A stretch of DNA of 64,000 bases from a virus, in the IMG/VR virus record IMGVR_UViG_3300045988_183727; one strand, given 5' to 3'. The notes under the pieces are model-generated. The model saw only the letters and a program-made list of their open reading frames with translations. It did not search any database and was not told where the DNA came from. The position numbers were made by a program, and so were the translations under genes. Shown here piece by piece: positions 6,126 through 59,937 of the stretch (its first letter is position 1; each line of letters begins with the position of its first letter).

Positions 6126-7637
6126 ATGCCGATGGATGCCGATTACGCGCTCTTGAAAAAGTGGAGCAACTGGTTCGACCGGAAAAACGGCAGCGGTTAT
6201 GGGCCAGCAAACATATTGCAGCGGAGAACAATGAACACTGCAATCGTAACTGTGAGTACACTGCAAAATATTCCTTTTACTGAGTTATCTTCTTCGCTGT
6301 ACTTCTTTTGTAGTGATATAGATAGCAAGGAGTTCTCTCGTCTGTATGAGTCTCAGGTGGAGTTGGCCGGTGCCAACCCTGACAAGTTTATCAAGGGCCT
6401 TCACAGCTTTTTCAATTCCATGGCCAAGAGAATCAAGAACGAATCCGAATACGCCCTGTTCTTTGATTTTCTCATGGCTGCATCTCGCCTTCTTTTTACC
6501 GCAAAGGAAGAAAAACAATCTAACATCAACATTGATGTGGTGTACTGTTACTTCAGTATCCTCCTTCAGCAGACGGAATACCTGCGTCCCGATAAGTTCG
6601 ACTTAACCAAAGTCGTCTGCGGTTTGAAAACGACCGGCGAACTGTTGGTCATGGAAGATACCTACCCCTTCTTGGATAAGCCTGCTTTTGAGTTGGAGCG
6701 CCGGAATCTTGATGGAAAGGTTCGTTCCCCCATGGAGCTGGATGCTCAAATCAAGGAAATTTATAGCAAGTGGGGATATGGCTACATCCAAAATAAGGAG
6801 GATTTGGAGCGCTACACGCAGGTAGACAGGATTTTTTCCAACCAAATAGCGGGTATGGCTGCGCTCATCAATGAATACACCTTCGACATACTTCCACAGC
6901 ATTGCTTTTCTGCCATCGCAAATAAGTTCTTTTCCGTTGTTGCGCTGCCTCCGATGCTGCCTGATGAGATGCATGAGCTGCTGCGGACGAAACGAAGTTC
7001 AACGCTTCCTGCCAACGGCGCAGTGTTTGAGTTTACAAGCGACAAAGACATTATCCGGAAGGTCTTGCTCAAGGAAACTCTATACGGCGATTCCATCTAT
7101 ATGCTTTACCGTCTGGACACCTGTGAGGGAGACTTGAGCGGGTACTATGATACTAAGACAGGGTTCTTCTTTTCGGTTTTCCTCGATTCAGAGGACAGAG
7201 TCATCTACGGGAACATAAGGCGGCTCGTTTTAACTCTCTACGCCTGTGCCGTAACGCGCAAAGGCCCAAAACTGCTGTCGCAACTAAGCAGCCATGTCAA
7301 GTATCTGTCCCTCGACAATAAGGGCGTCCGGAAATTTGATGAGGTATCCATAAGCTACTACGGTCGCGGAGGACGCCTCAGGAACGCCTACGACGGCGCG
7401 GAAGCGGCAGGGAAGGATGGATACACCCGTAAGGGCGACGAAGCCTATGAGGAGGCTCCCAGAGCCATTCAGGGCTTTATCCGAAAGGTGGGCGAGGGGA
7501 GAACGCCGTCCCGTGAGGCGGTGGAGTACGCGGAGGCTCTTGGGTACTCCCTCGCGCCTGACGAAACCTATGTAAAGCCATTCATCCGTAGAGTTCTTCG
7601 CCTGAAGCAAAAGGAAGCTGAGAACACAAATGGATAA
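6126..7637 (+). CDS. hypothetical protein (503 aa)
   Basis: Long ORF with RBS gaagaggag. Followed by a bidirectional terminator. Confidence 0.6.
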   Translation: MPMDADYALLKKWSNWFDRKNGSGYGPANILQRRTMNTAIVTVSTLQNIPFTELSSSLYFFCSDIDSKEFSRLYESQVELAGANPDKFIKGLHSFFNSMAKRIKNESEYALFFDFLMAASRLLFTAKEEKQSNINIDVVYCYFSILLQQTEYLRPDKFDLTKVVCGLKTTGELLVMEDTYPFLDKPAFELERRNLDGKVRSPMELDAQIKEIYSKWGYGYIQNKEDLERYTQVDRIFSNQIAGMAALINEYTFDILPQHCFSAIANKFFSVVALPPMLPDEMHELLRTKRSSTLPANGAVFEFTSDKDIIRKVLLKETLYGDSIYMLYRLDTCEGDLSGYYDTKTGFFFSVFLDSEDRVIYGNIRRLVLTLYACAVTRKGPKLLSQLSSHVKYLSLDNKGVRKFDEVSISYYGRGGRLRNAYDGAEAAGKDGYTRKGDEAYEEAPRAIQGFIRKVGEGRTPSREAVEYAEALGYSLAPDETYVKPFIRRVLRLKQKEAENTNG

Positions 7638-25132: not shown

Positions 25133-25186
25133 AGCATTATCTCCTTTCAAAGAGAGCCACCCCGAAAGGTGGCTCTTTAATTGTTG

Positions 25187-27409: not shown

Positions 27410-27426
27410 GCGTCAACTCTCCTTTC

Positions 27427-27846
27427 TTACTTTTTCCGGTTCTTGAAAATTTCAACGGTAAATTCAAGGCAGAAGTCTGCCACCTGCAGGCGGTCGGTGG
27501 AATCTCCGGTAAAAATCGGACTGATTCCGTTTGCTGCCGCCATCCGGTTAATGACATTGCAGCTATTGCAAGCAACGTCATGGTAGCATTTACGGAGCCT
27601 GTCGATGGTCTGCAATGCGTCGCGGAGGTCTTCGCCCTCAAGACGGTTGTGAGCAATGATGATGCGGGTCTCACCCATATCAACTGTGTTCACATAGTCG
27701 AGGAAGGCAGAGCATCGCTCTTCAAGGCTCTCAAGCAGCTTATCTGCATTGGGAATACCCTTCTTGACGCATTCGCCGACCTTGGCGCAGAGCGCGTTGT
27801 AATTTTCACGATTGAAAAAGTTGATGTTGTTATAGTTCTGAGTCAT
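27427..27846 (-). CDS. hypothetical protein
   Basis: ATG (MTQNYNN) 8 nt after aaaggagaaaaaaa on the minus strand. Confidence 0.45.
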   Translation of the reverse strand: MTQNYNNINFFNRENYNALCAKVGECVKKGIPNADKLLESLEERCSAFLDYVNTVDMGETRIIIAHNRLEGEDLRDALQTIDRLRKCYHDVACNSCNVINRMAAANGISPIFTGDSTDRLQVADFCLEFTVEIFKNRKK

Positions 27847-27922: not shown

Positions 27923-29788
27923 TTATGCCACCTTGCTGATGACTTGTGCTGCGTTGGAACGAATTTCGTTCTGTTCAACGGGGTCGTTCGTGCATTTCGA
28001 GATGAGGCACGTGTCAATATACTTTTCAAGATTCGCCAGATAGCGGTCATCACACTGCACGCAGCACACGAGGGATTCGAGCTCACAGATGGTGCAAGAA
28101 CCCTCGGTGATTTCCTTGTCCGCACAGTAGCTGCGAATCTGCTCGTACACATCGTAGAGCGCGTACAGGGTTCTGTCATCGCGACTCCAGCCGGTGTTGT
28201 ATTTGATGCGCTCCAGCATGGCTTTCTTCTCGATTTCCGTACTGTCGAAAATCATGCGGCAGCGACGGAGAACCGACTGGTCAATGGGACGGCAGGAAGC
28301 ATATCCGACGTTATCTGTGAATACCACAACGGCGTCCTTCTGCCGATAGGTAAATCCACCATCTACCAGAGGAATCATAGCTCCCGGCAAATCGTACTGG
28401 TTCAGCGCGACCATAACACCGGAATCCTTGATTCGGCTGACCTCCTGAATCTCGCAGATGTATCCGCGAGAAACAGCCTTCACAAAAGCGGATTCAACCA
28501 CTTTCACGGGGGAAGTGCAGCCGGCACGTGCAACCAACAGCTCGGAATACTTTGCAAAGCACTCCTCGGAGGTAATGCCCGTGCCATCTTCTCCTGTCAT
28601 GTTGTTCCACGCGGATTCGGGGTCGAAGGAAATTTCCTCAAAGGAGGGGAGTTCTCCTCGTGCCGCATCCACAGGATTGCAGGGAACGAACTCGGAAATC
28701 AAGTCCTTTGCCAACATATCAGTATGACAGGTCAGCTCCAAACGGGGGGTGTGCAGGATGCACGCCAACACCTTCGTACCGGTAGACTTGCCGTAACCGG
28801 TAATGCCGCGCCACAGGAAGTTGCGGAACGGAACGCGCATATTAGACGTTGCGACGATTTTATCTGCGATTTCGATTACCTCCGGCTGGACCTTGAAGTC
28901 GTCGTCAAAGGTGGGAATCAGCAGTTCTTCGTCTTGCGTCCACGTATGTGTTTTTGTCCATGCAGCATATCTGAGTTTGGCATCCTTCACGGTCATGCTC
29001 TTTTCAGACGAGCCGGTGCTTGAGGCCATGGTTCCACCGATAATGGTCGGGGAGCCAACGATGACGGTGCCATTAAAGGCTCCACTGTTTACCTTCTGCC
29101 GGGTCAGGGTATCCAGATTGCCGTTCTGGATGTTGAGAGGGATTTTTCCGTCTTCACAACCGTAGTAGAGAATGTCGCTGAATGTGTAGAGGAAGTCTCT
29201 TGCATCAGGAATCTCATCCATATGGTTGCCCCAGTCGGCGGGGTACTTGGCACTCAGGTCAAGGATGTCCGTCTGTACCTGCTTGAGCTCCACATTGTTT
29301 GCGACAACAGCCAGTTCAGGTGCGCCGTAATACGTTGCGAGGGTGAACGGGGTCATCGCAAGGAGAGCACCGCTCAGGTCGAGAGTGTCCGACTCCGAGC
29401 CAATAGACGGGGTTCCCGCCCACTGTCCGGAAGGTGCCGCTGACGCAGCCGCCAGCTTACCTACTGCCGGCGCATTCGTTTGAATGACCGTCTTGTAGGT
29501 GAAAAGATACGTCCTCGATTCCGTGGCGTCTCGATATTCCGCGCTCCACAGGTTATCAGAAACCTGCAAAAGAGCGTAGTCATCGACAAAATTGGGAATT
29601 CCCAGATACGCCAAAAGAGCTCTGGTCGCATAGTTGTGAAGGGTAGAATACCCCTTTGCAGAGGGGCGCTTGGGAGCACTCCATTTGGACACCGTACTTG
29701 TGTTTCTATTGGGAAGCGAGTTCAGCCCGTACGGAAGGGTGCTGATATCGAACCCTTTCTTCCCTCGGAAGAGTACACAGTTTGCCAT
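27923..29788 (-). CDS. AAA+ ATPase (MoxR/CbbQ-like AAA_5 family), partner of the vWA protein
   Basis: Walker A motif GITGYGKSTG. First gene of its operon, downstream of cassette A. Confidence 0.7.
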   Translation of the reverse strand: MANCVLFRGKKGFDISTLPYGLNSLPNRNTSTVSKWSAPKRPSAKGYSTLHNYATRALLAYLGIPNFVDDYALLQVSDNLWSAEYRDATESRTYLFTYKTVIQTNAPAVGKLAAASAAPSGQWAGTPSIGSESDTLDLSGALLAMTPFTLATYYGAPELAVVANNVELKQVQTDILDLSAKYPADWGNHMDEIPDARDFLYTFSDILYYGCEDGKIPLNIQNGNLDTLTRQKVNSGAFNGTVIVGSPTIIGGTMASSTGSSEKSMTVKDAKLRYAAWTKTHTWTQDEELLIPTFDDDFKVQPEVIEIADKIVATSNMRVPFRNFLWRGITGYGKSTGTKVLACILHTPRLELTCHTDMLAKDLISEFVPCNPVDAARGELPSFEEISFDPESAWNNMTGEDGTGITSEECFAKYSELLVARAGCTSPVKVVESAFVKAVSRGYICEIQEVSRIKDSGVMVALNQYDLPGAMIPLVDGGFTYRQKDAVVVFTDNVGYASCRPIDQSVLRRCRMIFDSTEIEKKAMLERIKYNTGWSRDDRTLYALYDVYEQIRSYCADKEITEGSCTICELESLVCCVQCDDRYLANLEKYIDTCLISKCTNDPVEQNEIRSNAAQVISKVA

Positions 29789-31792: not shown

Positions 31793-32830
31793 TCAGCCAG
31801 TTACGATGCAGGTAAAAGCCTCATCGCCGGACTCACTCATGTCATTCTCCCACGCCTCGGCGATTACGCTGATAGGTGTTTTGACAGCCTTTGCCCACGC
31901 AATACCGTCACCGCTGTCTTTCAGCATTTTATTACCGAAAGCCAGCGTTTTGAATTCGTAGGCGCAGTCGGGGAGGTCGAGGTGCTTCGGATTCAGCATG
32001 ACCGCACCTTCTGCCAGCAGCATACGAGCCCAAAGCTGATACTCCAGAGCCCATTTTGTTGTGTCTTCAGGCAGGTCGCCGTACATCTCATCCAGCTTCT
32101 GCAGCAGTTCTGCGATTGCAGCACGTCCCTCAGGCTTGTTGTACCGTTCGCCCAAATCGGGCAGTTTGGCAAAGAACAGGGGGGACGCTGAATACTCGCC
32201 GTCGGAATAGGCGAAGAACGTCAGCTCCATGGCAGGGGAATTGAAGAACTTCTCAGAGAGAATGTCCTTCACACCGCACTGGGTGAAGTTTACGCTGTCC
32301 GAAATGAGGCGGAAGCCGAACTGCTCCGTCCACTCGCGGGTAAGGTCTCTCTTCGCCATGGCCGCAACCGTGTCAGAATGCCGCCCGCAGGTGTTTTCCG
32401 GAGCCACACGCGGCTCGAATCTCGCCCGCATATTGTTGACGATAGCTTCAGTATCGTTGAGGACACTCTCAAAAAGCAGCCGGCAGCCGCGCCAATCTCC
32501 TTCGTCGGTGACGGAAAGGCTGATGATATAGGGCGCAAAATCTGCAGGATGGAGAATCAATACCGTCTTGCCAGCATCCTCAGTGACCTTAACAGACCAG
32601 CCGCACTCATTCCCGTATCGCTCGTCCTTCTCGAAAGAAGCATTTGTGAGAACGGAAAAGTGCAGTTCGTGACCGTCGCTGAAGACGCTCACAGAATCGC
32701 TCTTGCGGATGTCCTTGAAAGGAACGAATGTGGTCTCGAATCTGTCGTGCTTAGGGTTGTTGCGGGAGACCTTAACCAGCGTGTTCTCGTCGCAGAAAGC
32801 TGCGGCGGCTTTGATAGATACATTGTTCAT
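31793..32830 (-). CDS. hypothetical protein, tandem paralog
   Basis: Start MNNVSIK after aaaggagaaaaat. Confidence 0.55.
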   Translation of the reverse strand: MNNVSIKAAAAFCDENTLVKVSRNNPKHDRFETTFVPFKDIRKSDSVSVFSDGHELHFSVLTNASFEKDERYGNECGWSVKVTEDAGKTVLILHPADFAPYIISLSVTDEGDWRGCRLLFESVLNDTEAIVNNMRARFEPRVAPENTCGRHSDTVAAMAKRDLTREWTEQFGFRLISDSVNFTQCGVKDILSEKFFNSPAMELTFFAYSDGEYSASPLFFAKLPDLGERYNKPEGRAAIAELLQKLDEMYGDLPEDTTKWALEYQLWARMLLAEGAVMLNPKHLDLPDCAYEFKTLAFGNKMLKDSGDGIAWAKAVKTPISVIAEAWENDMSESGDEAFTCIVTG

Positions 32831-32895
32831 ATTTTTCTCCTTTCTTTTTTGGGAAAGCAGGGGAGAGGCAGAGTGCCTCTCCCGCTGGCTTTGAT

Positions 32896-33063
32896 TTAAC
32901 CGGTTATGACCGCCACAATAACCAAAACAATGGTGAGCGCAATAGTACCAAAGGCAGCCGGAAGCATTTCTGGCTGGTCTGATTTTTTTGCGGCTATGAC
33001 TGAGACGACCATTGCGGCGATGATGAGAACGACATAGGCTATAAACAAGGGGTTCGTCAGCAT
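32896..33063 (-). CDS. small membrane protein (55 aa)
   Basis: ATG after ggagaagg; 2 TM helices. Confidence 0.35.
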   Translation of the reverse strand: MLTNPLFIAYVVLIIAAMVVSVIAAKKSDQPEMLPAAFGTIALTIVLVIVAVITG

Positions 33064-33083
33064 TTTGAACACGTCCTTCTCCG

Positions 33084-33245
33084 TTAATACCACCGAACAA
33101 GTGCGAACAGTTCCACCATAATAACGCCCACAGAAACGCTGCAGACGATTGGCGGCAAGAGGTCCTGTGTGTCCAGTCTCCTTATGCCAAGGAATATGCC
33201 GCACATCACGAGAATGGTCAGAGCGAAGTAAAGAATAATCGACAT
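33084..33245 (-). CDS. small membrane protein (53 aa)
   Basis: ATG after ggtggag; hydrophobic. Confidence 0.35.
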   Translation of the reverse strand: MSIILYFALTILVMCGIFLGIRRLDTQDLLPPIVCSVSVGVIMVELFALVRWY

Positions 33246-43249: not shown

Positions 43250-43440
43250 TAAAAAAATATATAAAAAGACAGCTATCCCTGTCTTGGGATAACTGTCTTG
43301 AATACTTGGTGTGACTGGAAGCGGAGATAAGTCTCCTTATAAAAATATCTTCGTAATTATACTATTATACTACCACAATTATTTATAATGTCAACAATGG
43401 CAGAGAAAAAAGAGGCGGCTTTCGCCTGCCTCTTTTTTTA
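43250..43440 (-). promoter_or_regulatory. cassette D: terminator + promoter + palindrome + leader hairpin
   Basis: Terminator 43405-43439; -35 43389-43394; ggagataagtctcc 43323-43336; hairpin 43264-43300. Confidence 0.55.
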
Positions 43441-44610
43441 CCTTATTTCCTCGGAGTATTGTGCCATCCAGCAGTCGCAAAGGGCTTCCGCTACGACCTC
43501 ACTTCTATCGTTATCGTCAGAAATCATCAGGATTGAAGAAAGGGCTGACCGCATACCTTCATCGAGCGTAAACTCCCTCTCGTTTCCACTTTTATCTGGG
43601 ACATTTGTTCGAGCAAGCAGCGTCGAATATTTCGTATAATCGGGGGAAATGAAATAGTCCACAGCCGTGTCGAGTCCAATACTCAGCATCATAAGATTGC
43701 CGGTCGTTCCCATTGGTTCTTTCTTTCCGGACTTCTTCTCCGGTCTCATAAGAGTTCCGTTCTTGTCAAAGAATATTGCCCTATCTGACTTTTCAAATGT
43801 GTCTACAGGAACGCTAAAGCATCTGATTGCCATGTTCTTAAAAGGAGCACTGGCGTCTTCGCCGAACAGTGAGGAAGCATTACAGCAGTCATTTTCCATC
43901 TTCTCGTTAAGCCGCTTTATATAAAGCTCCTGAAAATCAATGGGAGCACCTGCGCTGTCCGCGTATACGTAGTTTTCTGGCTTTTTGCCGTCTGCCGTTT
44001 CCCTTACCATGTACTGCTCGTACTGCTTGCACATTTCTTTAATCTTAACTTGTATCCGCAAGGAATCGGAAAACGGAACTGCTGAGATTTGGGAGAAAAG
44101 GGAGGAGTAGTTGTGAGGGAGGTGGATGGGCGCACACTCATCTCCGAATAAGACTTTTTCGCAGGACTTGTCAAGGAAAAAGTATGAGGTTTTGTAAAGA
44201 CCTTCAACAGACGCATAAAACCCTTCAGGCAGCCGTCGCGTCTGCTTGCCGTCTGCTGGAGGCGAAATGCGTAACTCAAACGGGCCCACAGAGGTAAGCG
44301 CACCGTCCTCAGGCTCCTTGAGGCGCGACATTTTAGTTGCGTCCATGCCGATTTCTGCGCCAATTTGCTTCACATTCCATTCTCCATAGACACGTGGCAT
44401 TTTGGTAATGGCAAACAGCTCTTCGTACACTCTCGCGGAAACAAGCCTGCGTACCAAAGTGAGCTCATCGCTGAATTCGGCATATATTCCGAGCATTTCC
44501 TTGTAATTCAATTTTTCCGACTTCTCGGCGGAAGAGAACCGCGTATTGAGTTTTGTCGCCCATTTATTGCAGTCGATATATGCGTTGACTGCACTATCCT
44601 TTTTTCTCAT
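43438..44610 (-). CDS. hypothetical protein (390 aa)
   Basis: ORF track. Confidence 0.55.
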   Translation of the reverse strand: MRKKDSAVNAYIDCNKWATKLNTRFSSAEKSEKLNYKEMLGIYAEFSDELTLVRRLVSARVYEELFAITKMPRVYGEWNVKQIGAEIGMDATKMSRLKEPEDGALTSVGPFELRISPPADGKQTRRLPEGFYASVEGLYKTSYFFLDKSCEKVLFGDECAPIHLPHNYSSLFSQISAVPFSDSLRIQVKIKEMCKQYEQYMVRETADGKKPENYVYADSAGAPIDFQELYIKRLNEKMENDCCNASSLFGEDASAPFKNMAIRCFSVPVDTFEKSDRAIFFDKNGTLMRPEKKSGKKEPMGTTGNLMMLSIGLDTAVDYFISPDYTKYSTLLARTNVPDKSGNEREFTLDEGMRSALSSILMISDDNDRSEVVAEALCDCWMAQYSEEIR

Positions 44611-45575
44611 TTGTTTTCCTCCTTAAAGTGTTCAAGTCTTTCGGAAAACTTTTGCAGCGCTTTTCTAAACTCAATTTTGCAGGTGGTTGACATGAAATAA
44701 TAGGCGGAAACAATATCTTCTGTCGTAGAGTTTTTCGCATAAAGTCGCATTGTGCTTGGCATCCCCATGAGCCAGTGTAAAGAGACGCCAAAGGCAGCCG
44801 CTATATGCGGCAGAATTCTTTCGTTGCTTGTGGAGCAGGAGGGTCTCACCAACATGATATTCGCCAACTCGTGAATGACATCCTTTTGTTTATCATCTAA
44901 TTCAAAATTGCCTTTTCCGGACTGAATCAATTCATCCAAATCGAGAATATCCTGTCGCTTAAATGAACATCTGTGGGAAAAAACGTACTGTACTCGCGCA
45001 GAAGGGCGCAGCAATAAGCTGCGTTTTTTATCATCCCAGAATTGATGTATCCACATCGTATCAATCATGCCGAGAGCGGACTCTCTTATGCATCCGTCTC
45101 TTATCGTTTCTGGAAAGCTATCTACAAGATTATAGACTTCTTGAACATCTGGCGGTAGGCTGCTGAAAGCTGGAAAGTTTTTATCTCCGAATCGAATCAT
45201 TTCCTCGTAAGATATGTCCAACTCGGCAAGAATCCGAAAAACGATTTGCCAGTTAAATCCCTGCCAGCCTATAAATCGCTGTGTTTCTCCGTTTGTAACG
45301 GGAGTTTTATCAAATAAAAGGGCTGGCAGCTTTTCTTCTGGACAATTAAGCTGTTCGGCTAACCGCAGCTTTTTCATTTCTGCCCTGTATGGCGTGGTGT
45401 CTGTGATAATGTTGTTTACTCTTGCCATGTTGCCTGCATCCTCCGCAATTCTTAATTTGCGGAGGAGCAGGACTATAGAGGTATAGACAGTTGTTGAGAC
45501 GTTTTCTCCGTACCTTATATCGTCTCCAGCTCGTGCCGGCTTTGTAGGATTTGTTCTTTTATAAATAGCACTCAT
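44607..45575 (-). CDS. hypothetical protein (322 aa)
   Basis: ORF track; overlaps its neighbours by 4 nt. Confidence 0.55.
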   Translation of the reverse strand: MSAIYKRTNPTKPARAGDDIRYGENVSTTVYTSIVLLLRKLRIAEDAGNMARVNNIITDTTPYRAEMKKLRLAEQLNCPEEKLPALLFDKTPVTNGETQRFIGWQGFNWQIVFRILAELDISYEEMIRFGDKNFPAFSSLPPDVQEVYNLVDSFPETIRDGCIRESALGMIDTMWIHQFWDDKKRSLLLRPSARVQYVFSHRCSFKRQDILDLDELIQSGKGNFELDDKQKDVIHELANIMLVRPSCSTSNERILPHIAAAFGVSLHWLMGMPSTMRLYAKNSTTEDIVSAYYFMSTTCKIEFRKALQKFSERLEHFKEENK

Positions 45576-48107: not shown

Positions 48108-48484
48108 ATTACACTCATAAGCACAATAAAGTCAGCTCCCTGAGGGAAGTGTGCGGGAGTTGCTTCGACTTTCGCGTTGTTCTCCATGCGGGGAGGTTCT
48201 GGCGGTTCGAGTCCGCACGACGCGCCTTCTGTTTTCGCTGCTTCTATCTTCACCTCCGTCTTTTTAACGAGCAGCGGACACAGAAACATCTCTCAATATG
48301 ATAGCGTAGCATAACTGGTAATGCCGTACCTCTCTCACAGGTAACGATATGTTGGTTCAACTCCAGCCGCTATTGCCAGCCGGCGTTCTACCCACCCCGC
48401 CGACATCAACTCTCTTCGGCGCTGGCGGCCTCCGTGCAGACGGGATTACACGTGATAAGCGGAGGCTGCCAGCACCACCAAAAT

Positions 48485-48560
48485 GCTGGTGTAGCTCAGT
48501 AGGCAGAGCGGCGCACTCGTAACGCGCAGGTCGTGGGTTCGACCCCCACCGTCAGCTCCA
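48485..48560 (+). tRNA. tRNA-Thr(CGT), CCA encoded
   Basis: Cloverleaf with anticodon loop ctCGTaa and T-loop ttcgacc. Confidence 0.85.
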
Positions 48561-48652
48561 TTCCATACTCATTCTCCTTCAAGTGAAGCCCCCGTGTAAC
48601 AGGTCTTTTGAAAAGTGCTTTCAGCCTCGTTGTGCGGGGGCTTCACGACTAT

Positions 48653-48728
48653 GCTGATGTAGCTCAGTTGGCAGAGCGGCGGATTTGTAAACCGCAGGTC
48701 GGGGGTTCAAGGCCCTCCATCAGCTCCA
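48653..48728 (+). tRNA. tRNA-Thr(TGT), CCA encoded
   Basis: Cloverleaf with anticodon loop ttTGTaa and T-loop ttcaagg. Confidence 0.85.
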
Positions 48729-48763
48729 TTAAAACCATGTGCTTTTGTGGTGTTTTTATATGC

Positions 48764-48840
48764 GCGGATGTCGTCTAATTTGGTGAGACACCAGCCTTCC
48801 AAGCTGGTCATTGCGGGTTCGAGTCCCGTCGTCCGCTCCA
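48764..48840 (+). tRNA. tRNA-Gly(TCC), CCA encoded
   Basis: Perfect anticodon stem ccagc/gctgg, loop ctTCCaa, T-loop ttcgagt. Confidence 0.85.
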
Positions 48841-48867: not shown

Positions 48868-49229
48868 CTTTATCTGCTTATTTGTCCTGTGTTTTTCGGA
48901 CAACATCGGTGAGCGCAAAAGTCGCCTGAAGCGTGAGAAGCGAGCTGCCTGCATCTGTTTTGCGGGCGGTGGCGTGATAAGGGTGAAACTCTGCGCTTTC
49001 AGTAGCCGTAAGCAGGTGAGCAAAAGTCTCTGCGAACGCCTGCATGGTTCGCGGGACAAGGGAAGCCGGAAAAATAAGTAAACGCGGGCCGAGCGCAGAG
49101 GTTGTTGGCGTATTCCAGACGTGGGTGCTGCCTTTTATGCTGTGCTTGTTTGCGTGGGGTCCGGTGTTCTCGCAGTCTGGATGGTTGCTGCGAGAGGTGC
49201 CAAAACTTATTGCGAAAGGACGGAGTTCT

Positions 49230-50288
49230 ATGCCAACTACATTTCAAGCGTTTAAGTATCGCATTTACCCGACTGATGAGCAGGTCGAAATCATTGAAAA
49301 GACTTTCAAGTGCTGCCGGTTTGTGTGGAACCATTTCCTTGAGCGAACCTCCAAAATCTATGACCGTCGGCAGGAAAAGATGACGACCTTCGACTGTATG
49401 AAGGTTCTCACGGAGATGCGGGAGCGCTGGCCTTGGCTTGCGGACTGCGGCTGTACGGCAGAGAGATATGCCATCATTGATTTGTTTGAGGCGCGAAAGG
49501 CGTTCTTCCGCCGCATTAAAGCGGGGGAGAAGCCCGGTTATCCCAAATTTAAGGGCGCGTCCCATCCGACACAGAGTTTTACGACCGCTGGTACTATCTA
49601 TGTGACGGACGATTACATTCAGGTTCCGTTTGGAGGACAGTATCAGAAAATCAACAAGCTCAGGCGAGGGACGGGGCGCCCCATCGAAGGGTCTCCCCGC
49701 GAGGTCACTATTTCTCGGTCTGCTACCGGAAAATACTGGGCATCTGTCTGCTGTAAAGTAGAGCGAGACACGCTGCCTATTGTGGACGGCGAGGTGGGAA
49801 TCAGTCTCGGCCTGAAGGAGTTGGCTATTGACAGCAACGGCGTTCACTATGAGAACCCGAAGCATCTGAGCAAGTCTGCAAAGCGGTTGGCACGTGAGCA
49901 GCGGCGTCTATCCCGCAAGAAGAAGGGCTCTGTCAACTACGAGAAGCAGCGGCGCAAGGTAGCCGGCGTCCATGAGCATATTGCCAATCAGCGCAATGAC
50001 TACCGGCATAAAATCAGCCGTGAACTTGTCAACGCAAACCAGCTTATTGCCGTTGAGAAGGTGGCCGTTAAGCCCTTAGTTGAGGGCAATGAGCAGGCTA
50101 AAAGCATCCTCGATGCCGGCTGGTCTGAACTTACCGGTATGATAAAGTATAAGGCGGACTGGGCTGGACGCACTCTGGTGGACGTAGATACCGCCACCGT
50201 AGCACCGGAAGCCAAGCATGATGAGGCACTGGCACAGGTCGTGCTGTCCGAAGGTCAGCGCATGGCTTCCGAGCAGAAGCCTGCCTAA
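49230..50288 (+). CDS. TnpB-like (IS605 OrfB family) protein, probably nuclease-dead and C-terminally truncated
   Basis: N-terminal FKYRIYPTDEQ. RuvC-I reads GISLGLKELAIDSNG, so Ser replaces the catalytic Asp. RuvC-II IAVEKV. ILDAGWSELTGMIKYKADWAGRTLVDVD. There is no zinc finger or RuvC-III; an unrelated 30-aa tail follows. Confidence 0.75.
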   Translation: MPTTFQAFKYRIYPTDEQVEIIEKTFKCCRFVWNHFLERTSKIYDRRQEKMTTFDCMKVLTEMRERWPWLADCGCTAERYAIIDLFEARKAFFRRIKAGEKPGYPKFKGASHPTQSFTTAGTIYVTDDYIQVPFGGQYQKINKLRRGTGRPIEGSPREVTISRSATGKYWASVCCKVERDTLPIVDGEVGISLGLKELAIDSNGVHYENPKHLSKSAKRLAREQRRLSRKKKGSVNYEKQRRKVAGVHEHIANQRNDYRHKISRELVNANQLIAVEKVAVKPLVEGNEQAKSILDAGWSELTGMIKYKADWAGRTLVDVDTATVAPEAKHDEALAQVVLSEGQRMASEQKPA

Positions 50289-50303: not shown

Positions 50304-50563
50304 GTGTGCAATGATTGCACACATTGCCAAGGAAATAAAAACGAGTACGGACGGTATAGCCGGAATTAACGCCTGTGGAGATGCATGGTCGTCGTGGAAG
50401 CAGGAATACTCTGTTGGCTGGTAGTCACGTGAGAGGTGGCACCAGCGCTTTGGGGAACTGAATACCTGTGCTGGGTATACACCACCCGGAAATAACAGGG
50501 TTGTATACCAATTCATGGCGTCTCCTTTTGGTATACACCACCCGGAAATAACAGGGTTTTACC
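50304..50563 (+). repeat. R3: palindrome gtgtgcaatgattgcacac + ~130-nt core + 2 GTATAC units, directly downstream of the TnpB-like gene
   Basis: Palindrome 50304-50322; core 50345-50474. Confidence 0.6.
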
Positions 50564-50663
50564 ATTCGTAATTATAGTTCTTCCCTCCGCTGTGTGGAGC
50601 GTTTTGTCGAAATGACAAAACATTCCTCTTAAATTCTTAAAAACAAGAAAGGAAATAAAGAAT

Positions 50664-51792: not shown

Positions 51793-51811
51793 GCTAAATA
51801 CCTAAAAGCAA

Positions 51812-52155
51812 GTACGGACGGTATAACCGGAATTAACGCCTGTGGAGATGCATGGTCATCGTGGAAGCAGGAATGCTCTGTTAGCTGGTTTTCATGTGAG
51901 AGATGATGCCAGCAGCTAAGGGAACTGAATATGCCTGTGTTGGGTGTATGAGGCCCTGAAATGACAGGGGTGTATACCATATAATCTGTCGCTTGAGGAG
52001 ACAGGCGTATAGAGCCCAGAAATAACAGGGTTGTATACCCCTTAACCGCGCTCCAACTTTCAATCCTAAGGTGTATAAGGGCCTGAAATAACGGGGTGAT
52101 ACCTCAGTTATTCCTTTTAGGTACATAACGGGCTAAAACAACAGGGTAGTGTACC
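51812..52155 (+). repeat. R4: core + 4 GTATAC units
   Basis: The core carries compensatory substitutions in its terminal stem (ccagca/tgttgg). Confidence 0.6.
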
Positions 52156-52221
52156 AGATTATATATGATATGGGTGTAGGTATTCGTTTAGGACAACTTG
52201 AAGTTGAAAGGAGGTCTCTGG

Positions 52222-52743: not shown

Positions 52744-53252
52744 TGTATATGTCTCAGAAAGAGTTCAACGCTATGATGAAGAAAAACCCCCGCCTCCGTG
52801 TTCACGGTGCAAATAACAATACCCGCGAACATCGCTCCAAAGCGAATAAGGCGGCAAAATATAGAAATGTAAAGGTCTACGAGTATGCCGATGGGCTGGC
52901 TTTTTTCGGTAAGCCCCGCAATAATGGTGAAATCCCTATCGCTGTCTTTGACAGCAAGAAGGAGTACCACCGCTGGAAAGAGCTTCAGATTTTGGAGCGC
53001 GGCGGACATATCCACGACCTTCGCCGGCAGGTGCCTTTGACCATCATTACCGAGTTCGAGTATCGTGGTCAGAAGGTCTCCGGTATTACTTACAAAGCCG
53101 ACGCCGTCTATGTGCGCGACGGCAAGTGTGTGGTAGAGGACGTGAAGCCCTTCGATACCACAACGCAGAAGTATCGAACTACAAAGGATTTCAACCTCAA
53201 GTGGAAGCTGCTCAAGGCTGAATATCCTACTTGGTCTTTTGAAATCTATTAA
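52743..53252 (+). CDS. DUF1064-like phage protein
   Basis: FDSKKEYHRWKELQILERGG block; the start overlaps the upstream stop (TAATG). Confidence 0.55.
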   Translation: MYMSQKEFNAMMKKNPRLRVHGANNNTREHRSKANKAAKYRNVKVYEYADGLAFFGKPRNNGEIPIAVFDSKKEYHRWKELQILERGGHIHDLRRQVPLTIITEFEYRGQKVSGITYKADAVYVRDGKCVVEDVKPFDTTTQKYRTTKDFNLKWKLLKAEYPTWSFEIY

Positions 53253-53258
53253 AAACGA

Positions 53259-53533
53259 GTACGGATGGTATAACCGGAATTAACGCCTGTGGAGATGCAT
53301 GGTCGTCGTGGAAGCAGGAATACTCTGTTGGCTGGTAATCATGTGAGAGATGATACCGGCACCTTTGGGGAACTGAATATGCCTGTGTCGGGTATATAGA
53401 ACCCTGAAACGACAGGGTTGTGTATCACAGAATAACTGCGGCAGCGGCATATATGGCTCTGAAACAACAGGGTTGTATACCGCATAAAAAAGGCTATGGT
53501 GTGTAATACCCTGAAATAACAAGGTTGTGTACC
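53259..53533 (+). repeat. R5: core + 3 GTATAC units
   Basis: Terminal stem ccggca/tgtcgg, compensatory relative to R1. Confidence 0.6.
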
Positions 53534-53714
53534 CCATAACATATTGTTTCTGAAAGTGGTGGACGGCAAGTGGAAAATCTGAGCAACATCCGGTGGCGAG
53601 TTCATCTGTAAGACCTGCTACGGTGGAGGGAGCGGTATTTTCCTTGCCTACTTCGACCTCGTGCAGTGAGTGATTGCAGGGCTTTCGACGGTTCCGCAAA
53701 TTTGTTCGTTCCAA

Positions 53715-53797
53715 GAACTTGACAAAATATCGAATTATAGTAGTATAGAATTATAAGGAAGGACAGTCTAACACAGACTGTCCTTCCGCTTTTTTAT
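53715..53797 (+). promoter_or_regulatory. cassette E (plus strand): promoter + leader hairpin with U-run
   Basis: ttgaca 53719-53724; tagtagtatagaattataagga is shared with cassettes A-D; hairpin aggacagtct aacac agactgtcct followed by gctttttt. Confidence 0.45.
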
Positions 53798-53820: not shown

Positions 53821-54615
53821 TTGGGAAACACAAGCAAAAAGCACGTAAAATGGGGGATTTTCAAGACTGCACTTTTTACGTTCCTGTTCGTCGCAGTATC
53901 CGTTTTCTACTTTCTCTCCACCAACGTGACACTCGCACAGGCCGAAGAACGCTCGAACCACGAATCACCTCCTGCAGCAGAGGTTGCCGCCCAGATGGAC
54001 GACACCAAGCTGTCAGAAGAAGCGCAGCAAGATGTTTTGGTGCTGAAGGAAGGAATCCTCGACCCGCTTTCCGACATCACGGAAGCAGAGAACTCTGAAG
54101 ATGACCCCGACGCCGTGGAGGAAGTACAGGAAGTCGTTCCGACAGTCTGTTCCTACTGCGGCTCTGAGAACCATAGTTCCTCAATCTGTGCAAAGAGGTC
54201 TATCGCCAATGGTGCCTATGGGCGCTGGGTGATTCCGTCTGTTGGCTGTAATGTAGCGGCCTACTCGTGTAACTGGGATGCAGACCAATCCTATGTTCAG
54301 GAAATTACTGACAGTTCCGACAGTGCAGCTTTCTTGACTTGCGGCGGCGTTGGTGTTCTTGCGGACCACAATAACCAAGGTTTCTGTGGACTTTCCAATA
54401 TTTCTGTTGGCGCAAAAGCCTACATGGATTTTGGTGATGGTGCAACTTACTACGAGTGCTATCAGGTTGAATATGGACACAATACCGGCGAAAAGATGCT
54501 CGATGGAAATGGAAACATAATGAGCTACAGCAACTATTCTTCCGGCACCGTGATTTGCTACACCTGCCTTGACCACTGGACCAACATTTACATCACTTAC
54601 TGGACGCCGGTATAA
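53821..54615 (+). CDS. secreted/membrane-anchored sortase-fold-like protein, paralog 1
   Basis: TTG start after aaagggga. Signal/TM helix, an acidic linker, and a C-terminal domain with CSYCGS..H, IPSVG, ADHNNQGF and TVICYTC (a TLxTC-like motif). Confidence 0.5.
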   Translation: MGNTSKKHVKWGIFKTALFTFLFVAVSVFYFLSTNVTLAQAEERSNHESPPAAEVAAQMDDTKLSEEAQQDVLVLKEGILDPLSDITEAENSEDDPDAVEEVQEVVPTVCSYCGSENHSSSICAKRSIANGAYGRWVIPSVGCNVAAYSCNWDADQSYVQEITDSSDSAAFLTCGGVGVLADHNNQGFCGLSNISVGAKAYMDFGDGATYYECYQVEYGHNTGEKMLDGNGNIMSYSNYSSGTVICYTCLDHWTNIYITYWTPV

Positions 54616-54654
54616 GCGCCAGACACCCACTCTACTCTAAGAAAGGACAAAACC

Positions 54655-55455
54655 GTGAAAACGAAATTCAAAATCCCTCGGTGGGCACTCTTCACCGTTA
54701 TCATTCTGTCCTTTATCGGTGGTCTCTTTGCCATCTCCATGCTGCCTGCTTTCGCATCACGTGAAAGCTCTCCGCCTTTGGCAGTAGCAGAAGCCGCGCA
54801 GAACGAGGAAAAGGACGCAAATTCTGATGCTCAGACTCCCGAAGCAAACGAGACATCCGATGAGCATGGAAGCACTGAAACTCCCGTAGAGGACGAGCCT
54901 CAGGCAGACGATGCTGTCGTCGTTGAAGTGACTCCCTCCGAAGAGCCTGTTCAGGAAACTCCAACCACCTGTTCCTACTGCGGCAGCGTAGAACACACCA
55001 AAGACTACTGTGCCGTCCGTGCCGTGGACAATGGCGCCATTGGACGGCTCCGGATTCCCTCTGTCGGTGTTGACGTGGCTGTTTACGACGTCACTTGGTA
55101 CTCTCTGCAGCACACCACCGAAGGCGATAACTACGCGCAGGCCGTTACAGATGCATGGGACAGCGCCGCACAAATCGTCTATCTCGGCCAGACCGTTATT
55201 GGCGACCATAATAATCAGGGCTTCTCCGCCATCAACAACTGTGCCGAGGGCACTTACTCCTACATCGACATAGGCGACTCTGTCCTGACCTATGTTTGTA
55301 CCGGCATCCAGCATGGTCGCAACCCCGGTGGCTATCTTACCGGAGCCGATGGCGATAGCATCTATACCTCTTACTTCAATCCCAATGGTCTGACGCTGTA
55401 TACCTGTCTCGACCACAACTTCAATGTTGCCCTTGTGACATTCCAGCCTGCTTAG
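54655..55455 (+). CDS. sortase-fold-like protein, paralog 2
   Basis: Same architecture; GDHNNQGF and TLYTC motifs. Confidence 0.55.
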   Translation: MKTKFKIPRWALFTVIILSFIGGLFAISMLPAFASRESSPPLAVAEAAQNEEKDANSDAQTPEANETSDEHGSTETPVEDEPQADDAVVVEVTPSEEPVQETPTTCSYCGSVEHTKDYCAVRAVDNGAIGRLRIPSVGVDVAVYDVTWYSLQHTTEGDNYAQAVTDAWDSAAQIVYLGQTVIGDHNNQGFSAINNCAEGTYSYIDIGDSVLTYVCTGIQHGRNPGGYLTGADGDSIYTSYFNPNGLTLYTCLDHNFNVALVTFQPA

Positions 55456-55489
55456 GCTATTTAAGATTTGATGTGGGAAACCCACAAAA

Positions 55490-55659
55490 AGTCTTATAGC
55501 CACAGCCACACCGACGTGTGTAAGTCTTCTCTCAGGTAGAGGCGACGGATGCACCTGCGGGTTTTCCCAGCTCGCAGCTCTGCCAAGCATACGCCGAGGT
55601 AAGGGAGACATTACCGCCTCCTCCGGAGGCGAGACACTACTGAAAGGAGATGAGCGCAC
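55490..55659 (+). ncRNA. putative IscB omegaRNA / HEARO RNA region
   Basis: 170-nt non-coding, GC-rich, hairpin-dense sequence between the left inverted repeat and the iscB start. Confidence 0.45.
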
Positions 55660-57144
55660 ATGACGATGGTCTATGTGCAAAATAAAGACGGTAAACCTTT
55701 GATGCCGACAACTCGCTATTGTTATGTGCGCCTTCTCCTGAAGGAGAAGAAAGCACGAGTTGTTTGCACTACCCCGTTTACCATCCAGTTGAACTATGAT
55801 ACCCCAGACATCACCCAAGACTTGATTCTTGGCATCGACCCCGGCAGAACGAACATTGGTGTCGCTGTCGTCAAGGAGGACGGCCAATGCGTGTTCTCCG
55901 CACATCTGGAGACGCGCAATAAGGACGTACCTCTTCTGATGCAGAAGCGTGCCGGTTTCCGTAAGCAGCATCGCACGTTGGACCGGCGCCGCAAGCGCCA
56001 GCGTCGTGCGAAGGCTGCTGGGACCACCGTTGCCGGGGGTTCTGTCGAGAGATTGCTCCCCGGCTATGAGAAGCCCATTGTGTGCCACCATATCCGCAAT
56101 AAGGAGGCGCGGTTCAATAACCGTAGCCGCCCTGTGGGATGGTTGACACCTACAGCAAATCACCTGCTGCAAACCCACATCAACCTGATTGCAAAGGTTG
56201 CGAAGTTCTTACCTATCACGAAAGTGGTGGTGGAGCTGAACCGCTTTGCATTCATGGCGATGGATAATCCCAATATCCGTCGGTGGGAGTACCAGCAGGG
56301 GCCGTTGTACGGACTGGGTTCCGTGGAGGATGCGGTGTACGCACAGCAGGATGGACATTGCCTGTTCTGCAAGAAGCCCATTGACCATTACCATCATGTT
56401 GTTCCACGCCACAAGGGTGGAAGTGAGACGCTGGCTAACCGGTGTGGGCTTTGTGCGAAGCATCACGACCTCGTCCATAAGGACAAGGCGTGGGCGGATA
56501 AGCTGGTCACACGCAAGGAAGGTATGAATAAAAAGTACCACGCCTTGAGTGTTCTGAACCAGATTATCCCGCATCTCATGGAGTATCTCGGAGGCGAGAC
56601 TCTCTACGATGTCTATGCCACGGATGGTAAGTCCACCAAGGGCTTCCGCGTTGCCAAGAACGTGCCGAAAGAACATTACACGGATGCCTACTGTATCGCC
56701 TGTTCCATTTTGGATGCGAATACGAAGGTCTCCACACCTGCCGAACCCTTTAAGCTGAAGCAGTTCCGTCGGCACGACCGGCAATCCTGCATCCGCCAAA
56801 TGGTTGACCGGAAGTACCTTCTGGATGGCAAGGTCGTTGCAGCAAACCGGCATAAGGCCATTGAGCAAAAGTCCGATAGCCTGCAGGAGTTCCGTGAGGC
56901 TTACGGCGATGCTGCGGTATCGCAGCTCACCGTGAAACCTCACTCGCCCCAGTACAAGGACATGACTCGTATCATGCCGGGGGCGGTGATGGATTTCGGT
57001 GGCGCTGTCGGGATTCTTCAGGGGTCGGAAGGCTTCCATAACGGCAAGCCGGACTACTATAAATCTACGAAAGGAGAACGGGTTTTAACGAGGAGATGTG
57101 CGCTTCTCGCACAGAACGCAGGCATGGTTTTCATTCCCGCCTGA
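55660..57144 (+). CDS. iscB: IscB RNA-guided endonuclease (HNH + split RuvC), apparently intact
   Basis: PLMP motif (KPLMPTTRY), Ruv[11 protein letters not shown], Arg-rich bridge, HNH motifs (C..C...HH..N..C..C..H), RuvC-II VVVELN, RuvC-III HYTDAY. Confidence 0.85.
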
Positions 57145-57199
57145 AAACAAAGTTTTGTGGGTTTCCCACATCAAATCTTAAATATCCGGTGCAGCTTTA

Positions 57200-57973
57200 A
57201 TGAAAACAAAGAAAATTTCCCGCCGCGCCGTTACGCTGGCTGCCTTTTTGCTGGTAAGTGCATCATCTTTACATATGGCTTGTGCAGAGGCTTCGGTGCC
57301 TTTCGATTACTTTACTGATGACCTCTCTGTGTCCACTGACGCCGTTGCGAAGGAAGATAAATACCGGCCTCCTGAGTGGTTCACAAAAGAAAATGTTGTA
57401 AGTGAAGTGGACTCAGACACGCCTCCGGGGGAGACTCCTACCCCTGCGGGCGAACCTTCTGTGGCGACCCCCGTGCCTGAGCCCGCACCGGAAACCGCAG
57501 CAGCCTGCAGCTATTGCGGCAGCGCAGGGCACTCGCAGAATAGGTGTGCCGTTTACGCTGTCGAACAGCGAGGTGCCGTTGGGCGTTGGTCTATCCCTTC
57601 TATTGGAATAGATGTCGCTTGCTTCACCTATGTGCTTGGAAGCGATTCCTTCGAGTACGGACAGGCAATTTGTGACGCTGCCGATAGTGCCGGCTACAGT
57701 GCGTATGGGAGCCAGTATCTCATTGCAGACCACAACTATCAGGGCTTTTCTGCCATAGCCAACTGCGCGGTCGGTGCGGTGGGATATATGGATTACGGAA
57801 ACAGTCGAACAGAATATGTTTGTACTGGGGTGGAGTATGGGCACAATGAAGGCACGGAACTGACTGATAATGACGGAAACGATGTTGCGTACAACAACAG
57901 TGGAGGAATTACCCTTTACACCTGTTACAACGGCTGGCAAAACGTCGTCATAGCGTATTTTACTCCGGTTTAA
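57200..57973 (+). CDS. sortase-fold-like protein, paralog 3
   Basis: ADHNYQGF and TLYTC motifs. Confidence 0.55.
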   Translation: MKTKKISRRAVTLAAFLLVSASSLHMACAEASVPFDYFTDDLSVSTDAVAKEDKYRPPEWFTKENVVSEVDSDTPPGETPTPAGEPSVATPVPEPAPETAAACSYCGSAGHSQNRCAVYAVEQRGAVGRWSIPSIGIDVACFTYVLGSDSFEYGQAICDAADSAGYSAYGSQYLIADHNYQGFSAIANCAVGAVGYMDYGNSRTEYVCTGVEYGHNEGTELTDNDGNDVAYNNSGGITLYTCYNGWQNVVIAYFTPV

Positions 57974-58359: not shown

Positions 58360-59937
58360 ATGCCTACAGAAAGAAAGAAGAAAACAACAAAAGAAGAAAA
58401 CGCAAAAAATAACTCAACAAAAAACACAATAAAAAAACCAAGAAACTCAACAAGTAACACGAAAAGCAAGAAAGAAAGCAAGTCTCTTTTGGGGTTAAAG
58501 GACCTGATGGAAGATACGTCTCCAGAAAAAGTCGTCGGCTGTTATGTTCGTGTATCTACCGATGCACAGGCGGAGCAGGGATATTCTATACCTGACCAAA
58601 CAGCCAAATTGCAGGCCTTTTGTACCGTAAAAGGCTGGGAGAACGCGAAATTCTACACGGACCCCGGATTCAGCGGCAGCAACTTAAATCGACCGGCAAT
58701 GCAGGAAATGATATCCGATGCGATGGAAGGGAAGCTGAAGGCGGTTGTCGTCTTCAAGCTGGACCGTCTCTCCAGAAGTCAGAAGGATACTCTTTATTTA
58801 ATTGAGGATGTGTTTCTTCCGAACGAAGTGGATTTTGTAAGCATTTCCGAGGCCCTTGACACTACCACTCCATATGGACGAGCGATGATAGGTATTTTGA
58901 GCGTCTTCGCCCAGTTGGAACGCGAGAATATCTATATGCGAACCCGTATTGGAATGATGGGTCGTGTAAGCGCGGGGTATTGGCGTGGCGGCGGAAACGT
59001 TCCGTTTGGCTATGATTATGACAAGACAAGCAAATCCCTTATCCCAAATGCTGACGCGCCAAAAGTGCCACAGGCTTACGACCTCTACATCAAGGGCTAT
59101 AGTTGCCAGAAAATTGCGGATATGCTCGGACTAAGTAGCGAACAGCTCGTGAGGAATATTCTCACCAAGCGCACATATTGCGGCTACATCAACTACAAAG
59201 GCAAAGACTACAAGGGTTTCCACGAGCCTTTGATTGATGAAGAGCGGTTCATGCTCGTGGCTGCAGAAATGGAACGCCGTGGGAAGGAAAACCTCGCAGT
59301 CTGCGGCAACAATAAATATTATCTTCTTACCGGGCTTGTTTTCTGCGGAGATTGTGGCGCCAGAATGCGGTACATGAAGTGGGGGAAGTATATCCGTATC
59401 GTCTGCTACTCGCACACGTGTAAAAAGAACATGGTTAAGGACCCCGATTGTCCAAACAAGGGCGTTCGCGCAGATGAACTTGAGAAGGTTGTTATCTCAA
59501 AACTTTTTGACATTGGTACTGACATTTCTCTCGACGATTTTGACGACACCCACGTGCCTGCAAGTGCAGCAGAAATCCTGACGAACCGGATAGATGAGCT
59601 GAAGGAGTCTCTCAGGCGCCTATATGGGCTCTATGCCGACATCGGAGACCCCATGGTGTACGAGCGCATTGAGGATGTGCGAGGACAGCTCCACGTATTG
59701 CAGAGACAGCTTGCAAGCGAGGAAACGCAGAAACTCAAGGAAGAGCACATCAACTACGTCCGTGAGAAAATTCAGACTATTGGAGACCTCTGGCCCCATC
59801 TTACTCCTATGGAGCGCCAAACTCTTGTTCGTGATTGTGTTGAGAAGGTTATTTTGCATCACAACGGACGTGTTGAGGTTTACTACACTTTCCATACTGA
59901 GAAAGATAGTAAAATTCTCAAAAGGAAAGGCGCATAA
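58360..59937 (+). CDS. large serine recombinase (phage integrase type)
   Basis: YVRVSTDAQ with the catalytic Ser, KLDRLSRS, a recombinase domain and a C-terminal zinc ribbon. The Lys-rich 49-aa N-terminal extension may not be translated; an alternative ATG lies at 58507. Confidence 0.8.
   Translation: MPTERKKKTTKEENAKNNSTKNTIKKPRNSTSNTKSKKESKSLLGLKDLMEDTSPEKVVGCYVRVSTDAQAEQGYSIPDQTAKLQAFCTVKGWENAKFYTDPGFSGSNLNRPAMQEMISDAMEGKLKAVVVFKLDRLSRSQKDTLYLIEDVFLPNEVDFVSISEALDTTTPYGRAMIGILSVFAQLERENIYMRTRIGMMGRVSAGYWRGGGNVPFGYDYDKTSKSLIPNADAPKVPQAYDLYIKGYSCQKIADMLGLSSEQLVRNILTKRTYCGYINYKGKDYKGFHEPLIDEERFMLVAAEMERRGKENLAVCGNNKYYLLTGLVFCGDCGARMRYMKWGKYIRIVCYSHTCKKNMVKDPDCPNKGVRADELEKVVISKLFDIGTDISLDDFDDTHVPASAAEILTNRIDELKESLRRLYGLYADIGDPMVYERIEDVRGQLHVLQRQLASEETQKLKEEHINYVREKIQTIGDLWPHLTPMERQTLVRDCVEKVILHHNGRVEVYYTFHTEKDSKILKRKGA

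Follow-up and report, generated by a model that had tools for sequence, protein, structure and literature searches.

Paralogs with a predicted sortase-type barrel but without the sortase arginine adjoin the recombinase of an integrative element

Sortases are defined by a His-Cys-Arg active site and by one job, the sorting of proteins that carry C-terminal signals. What, then, are proteins that appear to keep the sortase fold, the histidine, and the cysteine, but have no arginine? The question is raised by three paralogous genes on the plus strand of IMG/VR virus record IMGVR_UViG_3300045988_183727, of which we analyzed a stretch of 64,000 nucleotides (64 kb; hereafter the window): paralog 1 (53821-54615; 264 amino acids [aa]; TTG start), paralog 2 (54655-55455; 266 aa; GTG start), and paralog 3 (57200-57973; 257 aa; ATG start). 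An earlier note on this DNA, made from the sequence alone, had proposed a divergent transpeptidase or protease family, and our results support a divergent family, with a predicted sortase-superfamily fold, no arginine, and scores below curated cut-offs. The best explanation for the proteins and their relatives is that they make up a large branch, as yet unannotated, of the sortase (peptidase C60) superfamily in Firmicutes. We lean modestly toward the view that the trio are wall-directed peptidases or transpeptidases in which cysteine and histidine form an active catalyst without the arginine. The family as a whole probably acts on the cell wall and not in the sorting of LPXTG proteins.

Structure prediction shows the domain of the paralogs as an eight-stranded sortase barrel. 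The paralog 2 domain (54952-55452), modeled with AlphaFold2 using a 48-sequence alignment, gave a predicted local distance difference test (pLDDT) score of 89.2 and a predicted template modeling (pTM) score of 0.84. When Foldseek was run with this model, it returned 123 PDB matches at E ≤ 1e-3. All of the 50 matches listed were sortases, with template modeling (TM) scores of about 0.55, and the closest solved structures among them were 6bwe, 5hu4, 7cfj, 4d70, and 6ixz. Superposed on SrtA, the model fits to 2.3 Å over 114 residues. The sortase-like fold suspected earlier from short motifs was thus recovered by modeling, and not an unrelated fold. At the level of profiles, hhalign against Staphylococcus aureus SrtA gave a probability of 83% (E 9e-6), and the Pfam Sortase model (PF04203) was matched at E ≤ 0.01 by 15 of 48 family members. 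Its scores were 17.5 bits for paralog 2, 17.0 bits for paralog 3, and 19.1 bits for the domain alone, against a cut-off of 26.6 bits, and paralog 1 had no match to this model. NCBIfam sortase models scored 15 to 18 bits (class C, E 1.6e-3), where the cut-offs are 39.35 for sortase_fam and 160 for class C. Lacking the arginine and falling short of the curated cut-offs, the paralogs are therefore not filed as sortases, though they are divergent members of the sortase superfamily.

Each paralog is best explained as a Sec signal peptide followed by an acidic, disordered spacer of about 70 residues, a CX2CX4HX4C knuckle, and the barrel. The hydrophobic N-terminal segment, acidic linker, and domain described in the earlier note are all seen in the three sequences. 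The hydrophobic N-termini lead into AQA before E in paralog 1 (about aa 40), AFA before S in paralog 2, and ACA before E in paralog 3, an AXA pattern that looks more like a cleavable signal peptide than like a membrane anchor. The linkers hold 15 to 21 aspartates and glutamates versus 2 to 4 lysines and arginines per 67 to 74 residues. Modeled at full length with AlphaFold, paralog 3 has a helix near its N-terminus (residues 8-29); pLDDT in the linker drops below 50 over residues 34-57 and 61-72 and stays at 46 to 59 per ten-residue block up to about residue 90; and the barrel reaches 89 to 98. The knuckle is moderately confident, with pLDDT ranging from 68 to 78 across this model and that of the paralog 2 domain. 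It lies at aa 110-123 of paralog 1 (54148-54189), aa 106-119 of paralog 2 (54970-55011), and aa 103-116 of paralog 3 (57506-57547), and it probably binds zinc. All of the motifs that had been quoted for these proteins are present, although the spacing of the CCHC motif had been misjudged, since four residues and not three separate the histidine from the last cysteine in all three proteins, exactly as in CX2CX4HX4C.

Full-length identity between the paralogs is 34-40%. Their alignment has 55 invariant columns, including CSYCGS..H....CA, GA.GR..IPS.G..VA, D..DSA, DHN.QGF, Y.C, and YTC; with variable positions allowed, the motifs extend to GA.GR..IPS(V/I)G..VA, (A/G)DHN(N/Y)QGF, and TLYTC or VICYTC. 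Paralog 1 matched the hidden Markov model (HMM) of the family domain at E 6e-65. Independent gene calls on one related contig reproduced the open reading frame (ORF) lengths of all three.

The sortase arginine is absent at the start of the last strand, whereas the histidine and cysteine are conserved. The residues in question are His183 (54367-54369), Cys249 (54565-54567), and Asn255 (54583-54585) in paralog 1; His185 (55207-55209), Cys251 (55405-55407), and Asn257 (55423-55425) in paralog 2; and His178 (57731-57733), Cys242 (57923-57925), and Asn248 (57941-57943) in paralog 3. In both models, the histidine is the first residue past a beta4-like strand (80-85 in the paralog 2 domain, 172-177 in paralog 3). 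Furthermore, the model of paralog 3 puts Cys242 at the very end of strand 237-242 and opens the final strand, 248-256, with Asn248. In SrtA, His120, Cys184, and Arg197 occupy matching strand-end and strand-start positions (review PMC11231552), so the predicted histidine and cysteine are positionally equivalent to the sortase pair, with asparagine at the position of arginine. From these equivalent strand ends, together with the superposition on SrtA, we infer that the cysteine and histidine are adjacent in space. Alignments agree in large part. Specifically, the family profile pairs D-H with LAGHN and YTC with ITLITC of Bacillus anthracis SrtA, and hhalign likewise aligns YTC with TLITC of S. 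aureus SrtA. Against the latter, HMMER and hhalign displace the histidine by 4 to 5 residues through gap avoidance, a discrepancy that was settled via secondary structure. The tails that follow the cysteine, LDHWTNIYITYWTPV, LDHNFNVALVTFQPA, and YNGWQNVVIAYFTPV in paralogs 1 to 3, contain no arginine between the YTC cysteine and the C-terminus, as had been claimed.

Conservation was counted over 190 representatives of the family (≤50% mutual identity) plus the three window proteins. The aspartate before the histidine was found in 191/191 and the histidine itself in 190/191, with glutamine at +3 in 188/191 and phenylalanine at +5 in 190/191. Similarly, T-C was kept in 190/190, the cysteine of Y.C in 185/191, the arginine of GR..IP in 184/191, and the asparagine of G.N in 183/190. 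The asparagine at the start of the last strand was more variable (143/181; 79%), as was the residue before it (Q65/R23/K23/T20/F11); the pair reads T-N, F-N, and Q-N in the three window proteins. Only 21% of relatives had any arginine within 10 residues past the cysteine.

The family is widespread, yet it has passed without a name. A word-indexed search yielded 58 clusters of relatives, and an exhaustive HMM search yielded 1,465 representatives (50% identity) at E ≤ 1e-3, 599 of them at E ≤ 1e-30. Canonical sortases would be expected, by estimate and not by count, to give far more representatives than 1,465; the profile is therefore taken not to gather ordinary sortases. The names given to the relatives by their sources are all "hypothetical protein." The scan for related loci used the three-paralog alignment as its query, and GTDB species genomes contributed 33 loci, all from metagenome-assembled genomes (MAGs) of uncultured gut or rumen Firmicutes (Clostridia, Oscillospiraceae, Ruminococcaceae, Erysipelotrichaceae, and Bacilli). 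A tblastn search with paralog 2 found no match in 72,556 plasmids and 50,697 phage records, while BFVD gave one weak match. Searches of the literature turned up nothing relevant on an Arg-less sortase or sortase-fold family, a sortase-fold hydrolase, or sortase-like proteins on conjugative elements of Clostridia.

Some of the longer relatives are fused to other domains. Among 68 relatives of at least 290 aa we found SH3_3 (eight), Flg_new (seven), Big_2 (five), SLH (two), fn3 (two), a choline-binding module (one), and Transglut_core, a transglutaminase-like protease core (one). Some family members have lipoboxes. SH3_3, SLH, and choline-binding repeats are the modules by which peptidoglycan hydrolases are classically targeted to the wall; to our knowledge, canonical sortases have neither such wall-module architecture nor cleavable N-termini or lipoboxes. 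The CX2CX4HX4C knuckle is optional, being present in 63 of 193 members. Separately, a C..H.W.EW...(15-20 residues)...C..C motif with no Pfam match occurs C-terminally in P0136, P0140, P0146, P0169, P0177, and P0081 and N-terminally in P0047; these motifs look like small extracellular zinc ribbons.

To assess selection and synteny, we compared 25 loci of this element that IMG/VR lists as viral. The ratio of nonsynonymous to synonymous polymorphism (pN/pS) was 0.12-0.15 over the knuckle and barrel of each paralog versus 0.28-0.63 over the linker, so that purifying selection acts on the catalytic part of every paralog. For whole paralog genes the ratio was 0.12-0.42, versus 0.04-0.07 in neighboring genes. 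The order of the trio, adjoining the recombinase, is kept in 24 of the 25 loci, L065 being without paralog 1. Elsewhere the family is mostly single copy, with two copies in L002, and a trio is found only in this element lineage. The notion that the family was amplified on this element therefore holds insofar as there are three copies here, but is overstated: these are old paralogs in a fixed trio, and their relatives mostly stand alone.

How might such proteins work? Under the mechanism we propose, the cysteine thiolate, with histidine as general acid/base, would attack a peptide bond to form a thioacyl enzyme. The asparagine at the strand start and the Asn/Gln of DHNNQGF could act as neutral hydrogen bond donors, positioning the substrate and oxyanion as Arg197 does in sortases, and the intermediate would be resolved either by water (hydrolysis) or by an amine (transpeptidation). 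The target would be a peptide bond in or on the wall, whether in a peptidoglycan stem, a cross-bridge, or a wall-linked protein, and not an LPXTG precursor at the membrane. We favor a wall target for four reasons: the three proteins seem to be cleaved and released, not anchored in the membrane; among their relatives are lipoproteins and fusions to SH3_3, SLH, choline-binding, Big_2, or Flg_new modules, as in peptidoglycan hydrolases; the conserved pocket residues are polar or acidic; and no sorting-signal substrate emerged as a conserved neighbor. A pocket of this kind (D..DSA, DHNNQ, G.N) may suit a peptidoglycan stem or an amine-bearing substrate better than the hydrophobic groove for LPXTG would. 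On the element, which is at least 60 kb long, the trio would be integrase-proximal cargo, its three diverged specificities serving to remodel the carrier's envelope. We put forward only tentatively, and with some doubt, the larger claim that the family is a new sortase-fold class, in which Asn/Gln donors replace arginine beside a Cys-His pair and secreted or wall-tethered enzymes of several specificities remodel the carrier envelope by a reaction beyond those of known sortases. Candidate reactions are the cleavage of peptidoglycan stems or cross-bridges and the release of sortase-anchored proteins from the wall.

A number of observations weigh against a wall-directed enzyme. SrtA without its arginine loses efficient catalysis (Marraffini 2004, as listed in PMC11231552), so activity of the Arg-less paralogs is not guaranteed. 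The asparagine at the strand start is not kept in the chromosomal branch from Bacilli, and it is therefore not a universal catalytic residue. Wall-binding fusions tell us the site of action and not the chemistry, and the choice between signal peptide and signal anchor was made by eye from AXA motifs. Finally, the window encodes a giant adhesin with a sorting signal while no canonical sortase was found in its 64 kb, a combination that would fit genuine sorting transpeptidases. This adhesin (37-4800; its ORF is open to position 1) has five TQ-ester and seven SpaA domains. The NVQTG-like sorting signal attributed to it earlier is borne out by a C-terminus with SVQTG, a hydrophobic stretch, and RRKK. 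Sorting transpeptidases would recognize SVQTG, cut after the threonine, and attach the adhesin to lipid II or the wall, making the trio the "missing" xVQTG sortases. The related NVQTG signal of Clostridium difficile CbpA is reportedly left uncleaved in vitro by SrtB, the only sortase of that species (PMC4155245), and that motif is therefore without a known enzyme (PMC4155245, PMC5118464). The fold, histidine, and cysteine of the trio are also those of sortases. The one support for a link between adhesin and trio, however, is that they share an element, on which they lie 49 kb apart. Relatives are found on other elements and chromosomes that lack a sorting-signal protein within 10 kb; the search for co-occurring substrates suggested in the earlier note came back nearly empty, with such a C-terminus at that distance in 2 of 40 related loci, one of them doubtful. 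The paralogs lack the arginine that every studied sortase requires, their N-termini look cleavable, some of their relatives have lipoboxes or SH3_3, SLH, or choline-binding modules, and three diverged paralogs would be superfluous for one adhesin. We thus consider a sorting role unlikely. A substrate encoded nearby was also considered and rejected, as clustering of the neighbors in 41 loci revealed no conserved partner and neighbors in MAGs are largely housekeeping genes (often alanine racemase, CNNM/CorC, and TldD). In other mobile elements, the family gene is surrounded by genes for relaxase, orphan methyltransferases, HU, DUF4314, and YodL/DUF3846, and the giant leucine-rich repeat (LRR) surface proteins encoded there, in L002 and L004, have no sorting signals. 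Surface proteins with LRR_5/DUF285 at L002 19760-20059 and L004 19258-19557 (minus strand) do share a C-terminal MSIMS.G..ISGYS(V/I)SE, which is not accompanied by a hydrophobic anchor.

The paralogs could instead be secreted proteases that act outward, on surface proteins of competitors or recipients, incoming phage, mating partners (as in exclusion), or host gut proteins. The apparent signal peptides, with their AXA sites, and the long flexible spacers would suit such a role, as would the fusion of relatives to adhesion-type Big_2, Flg_new, and fn3 domains and the position of the trio as moron-like cargo adjoining an integrase. Three diverged paralogs could mean three targets, and their pN/pS exceeds that of the neighboring genes. 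Yet the broader family occurs amid housekeeping genes in many MAGs, which suggests a cell-autonomous role, and the wall bound by SH3_3, SLH, and choline-binding modules is that of the producer itself; we regard outward proteolysis as quite improbable. Very improbable, in our judgment, is that the proteins are pseudoenzymes, that is, dead sortase-fold modules retained on the surface for binding or scaffolding. The loss of the essential arginine would point that way, as would P0063, which has two sortase-like domains, the second with neither histidine nor cysteine, and a natural variant of paralog 1. In this variant (P0003; L001 10001-10795), the representative of the paralog 1 cluster, ADQNDQGF replaces ADHNNQGF, changing His to Gln. 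The idea prompted by the variant was rejected, since it is a singleton on one contig and the histidine is kept in the 17 other sequences of the 18 checked. Moreover, the (near-)invariance of D-H, Q, F, and T-C in about 190 representatives is hard to explain without catalysis, and the barrel is under purifying selection.

The trio is followed, after 386 nt, by the gene for a large serine recombinase (58360-59937, plus strand; Resolvase, Recombinase, and Zn_ribbon_recom domains), the terminal gene of the element. Homology to L067 stops at about 60033 (between 59937 and 60095; about 13227 in L067), which puts the recombinase and trio at one extremity of an integrative element at least 60 kb long. 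Past this junction, L067 continues with a 98-aa fragment of a Sigma70_r2 gene and then with host genes (tRNA synthetase, holA, comEC), while in the window the trio's element borders directly on another, prophage-like one (YqaJ, RecD-like helicase, SSB). The junction, reminiscent of skin-type elements, could reflect tandem integration at a sigma-factor gene. With PHROGs and Pfam, which returned nothing for the majority of the large ORFs in the window, we found no capsid, terminase, portal, or tail genes and no recognizable type IV secretion genes in the window.

The span 53821-57973, which had been described as three paralogs, does contain them, but about 55456-57187 (plus strand) is a 1.73-kb insertion that is no part of the trio. 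It carries an ORF (55660-57144) for IscB, an RNA-guided nuclease (NF040563, E 6e-68; RRXRR and HNH domains), and lies between inverted repeats of 42 nt (55448-55489 and 57153-57194; 90% complementary). L001 shows the empty site. At this position the insertion occurs in L050 only (1/25 related elements) and is absent from 23/25, while copies 86-87% identical lie elsewhere in six elements (L045, L057-L060, and L065). The 204-nt 5' leader of IscB folds much better than its shuffles (z -4.4; 0/200) and had no match to an Rfam family; it is a candidate omega RNA. Upstream of paralog 1, a sigma-70-like promoter candidate (53719-53746, plus strand; TTGACA, 16 nt, TAGTAT) agrees with consensus at 10/12 positions, although the number of such matches in the region is not above shuffled expectation. 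Between it and the start codon, a 13-bp hairpin with a T-run (53757-53797, plus strand) could be a terminator of upstream genes or a leader attenuator.

A composite intergenic repeat is found in three copies (50336-50571, 51803-52161, and 53250-53539), each of which precedes a plus-strand gene cassette; the third lies just upstream of paralog 1. Each copy consists of a segment of about 130 nt that is at least 86% identical between copies, followed by two to four palindromic units of about 42 nt (GGTATACA..CCCTGAAATAACAGGG..TGTATACC) spaced 50-66 nt. The repeat has a fold z-score of -2.35 and no match in Rfam. The first copy begins 48 nt past the stop codon of a TnpB gene (OrfB_IS605; 49044-50288), which itself follows a cluster of four tRNA genes (48300-48837, plus strand; Rfam 43-63 bits). 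Much of the element is functionally dark, with large ORFs (322-801 aa) at 20714-22903, 25181-27586, 27923-29788, 6126-7637, 31793-33100, and 43438-45575 for which neither Pfam nor PHROGs gave a match at E ≤ 1e-3.

Taken together, our results describe a well-populated and separate branch of the sortase fold (about 1,465 clusters at 50% identity) that dispenses with the arginine, appears to be exported in another way, and is found joined to wall-binding modules. The branch is common in gut and rumen Firmicutes and their mobile elements, yet remains "hypothetical" in public records. If active, its members would add a new class of wall-active enzymes to the repertoire of gut Firmicutes and would show that the sortase scaffold can operate free of arginine, which bears on the engineering of sortases for protein ligation. 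They would also offer a concrete candidate enzyme for xVQTG sorting signals and give annotation pipelines a family to name.

Comparison with known systems helps to place the family. In architecture, its members resemble the NlpC/P60 and CHAP endopeptidases, secreted Cys/His enzymes that combine a signal peptide and SH3_3, SLH, or choline-binding modules with a catalytic domain. These endopeptidases are frequent on mobile elements of Firmicutes. They differ in having a papain-like fold with the cysteine before the histidine, whereas our family has a predicted beta-barrel with the histidine before the cysteine and no Pfam match to theirs; activity on peptidoglycan, a trait of NlpC/P60 and CHAP, is a proposal for our family. 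The L,D-transpeptidases (YkuD/ErfK, PF03734), which are Cys/His acyl-enzyme transpeptidases, work on peptidoglycan stems outside the cytoplasm. The comparison with them suggested in the earlier note showed that the fold is not that of YkuD, the HxxxxxxxxxxxxxxxxSHGC motif is absent, and there is no Pfam match. The knuckle has the same CX2CX4HX4C spacing as zf-CCHC (PF00098), and Pfam matches to that family are weak (E 0.12-0.15; 13 bits against a cut-off of 20.8 bits). Unlike the retroviral-type knuckle, that of the family would be extracellular, in a bacterial secreted protein, and directly N-terminal to a putative catalytic barrel. The closest relatives are sortases A to F (C60, PF04203), which share with the family an N-terminal export segment and linker, an extracytoplasmic location, and an occurrence in Firmicutes, along with G-x-x-x-IP-S/D on the first strand, a histidine that ends beta4, and a T-C cysteine that ends beta7. 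Where sortases have arginine at the start of beta8, the family has asparagine or a variable residue; where they have (L/I)(A/S)GH, it has D-H-N-N/Y-Q-G-F. Its scores lie under the Pfam and NCBIfam cut-offs, and no sorting-signal substrate is a conserved neighbor. What sets the family apart from sortases, in addition, is a connection between beta7 and beta8 of just 3-5 residues in the two models, an invariant D..DSA segment, a knuckle in about one-third of its members, N-termini that look cleavable or carry a lipobox, and, in some members, fusion to the SH3_3, SLH, and choline-binding modules.

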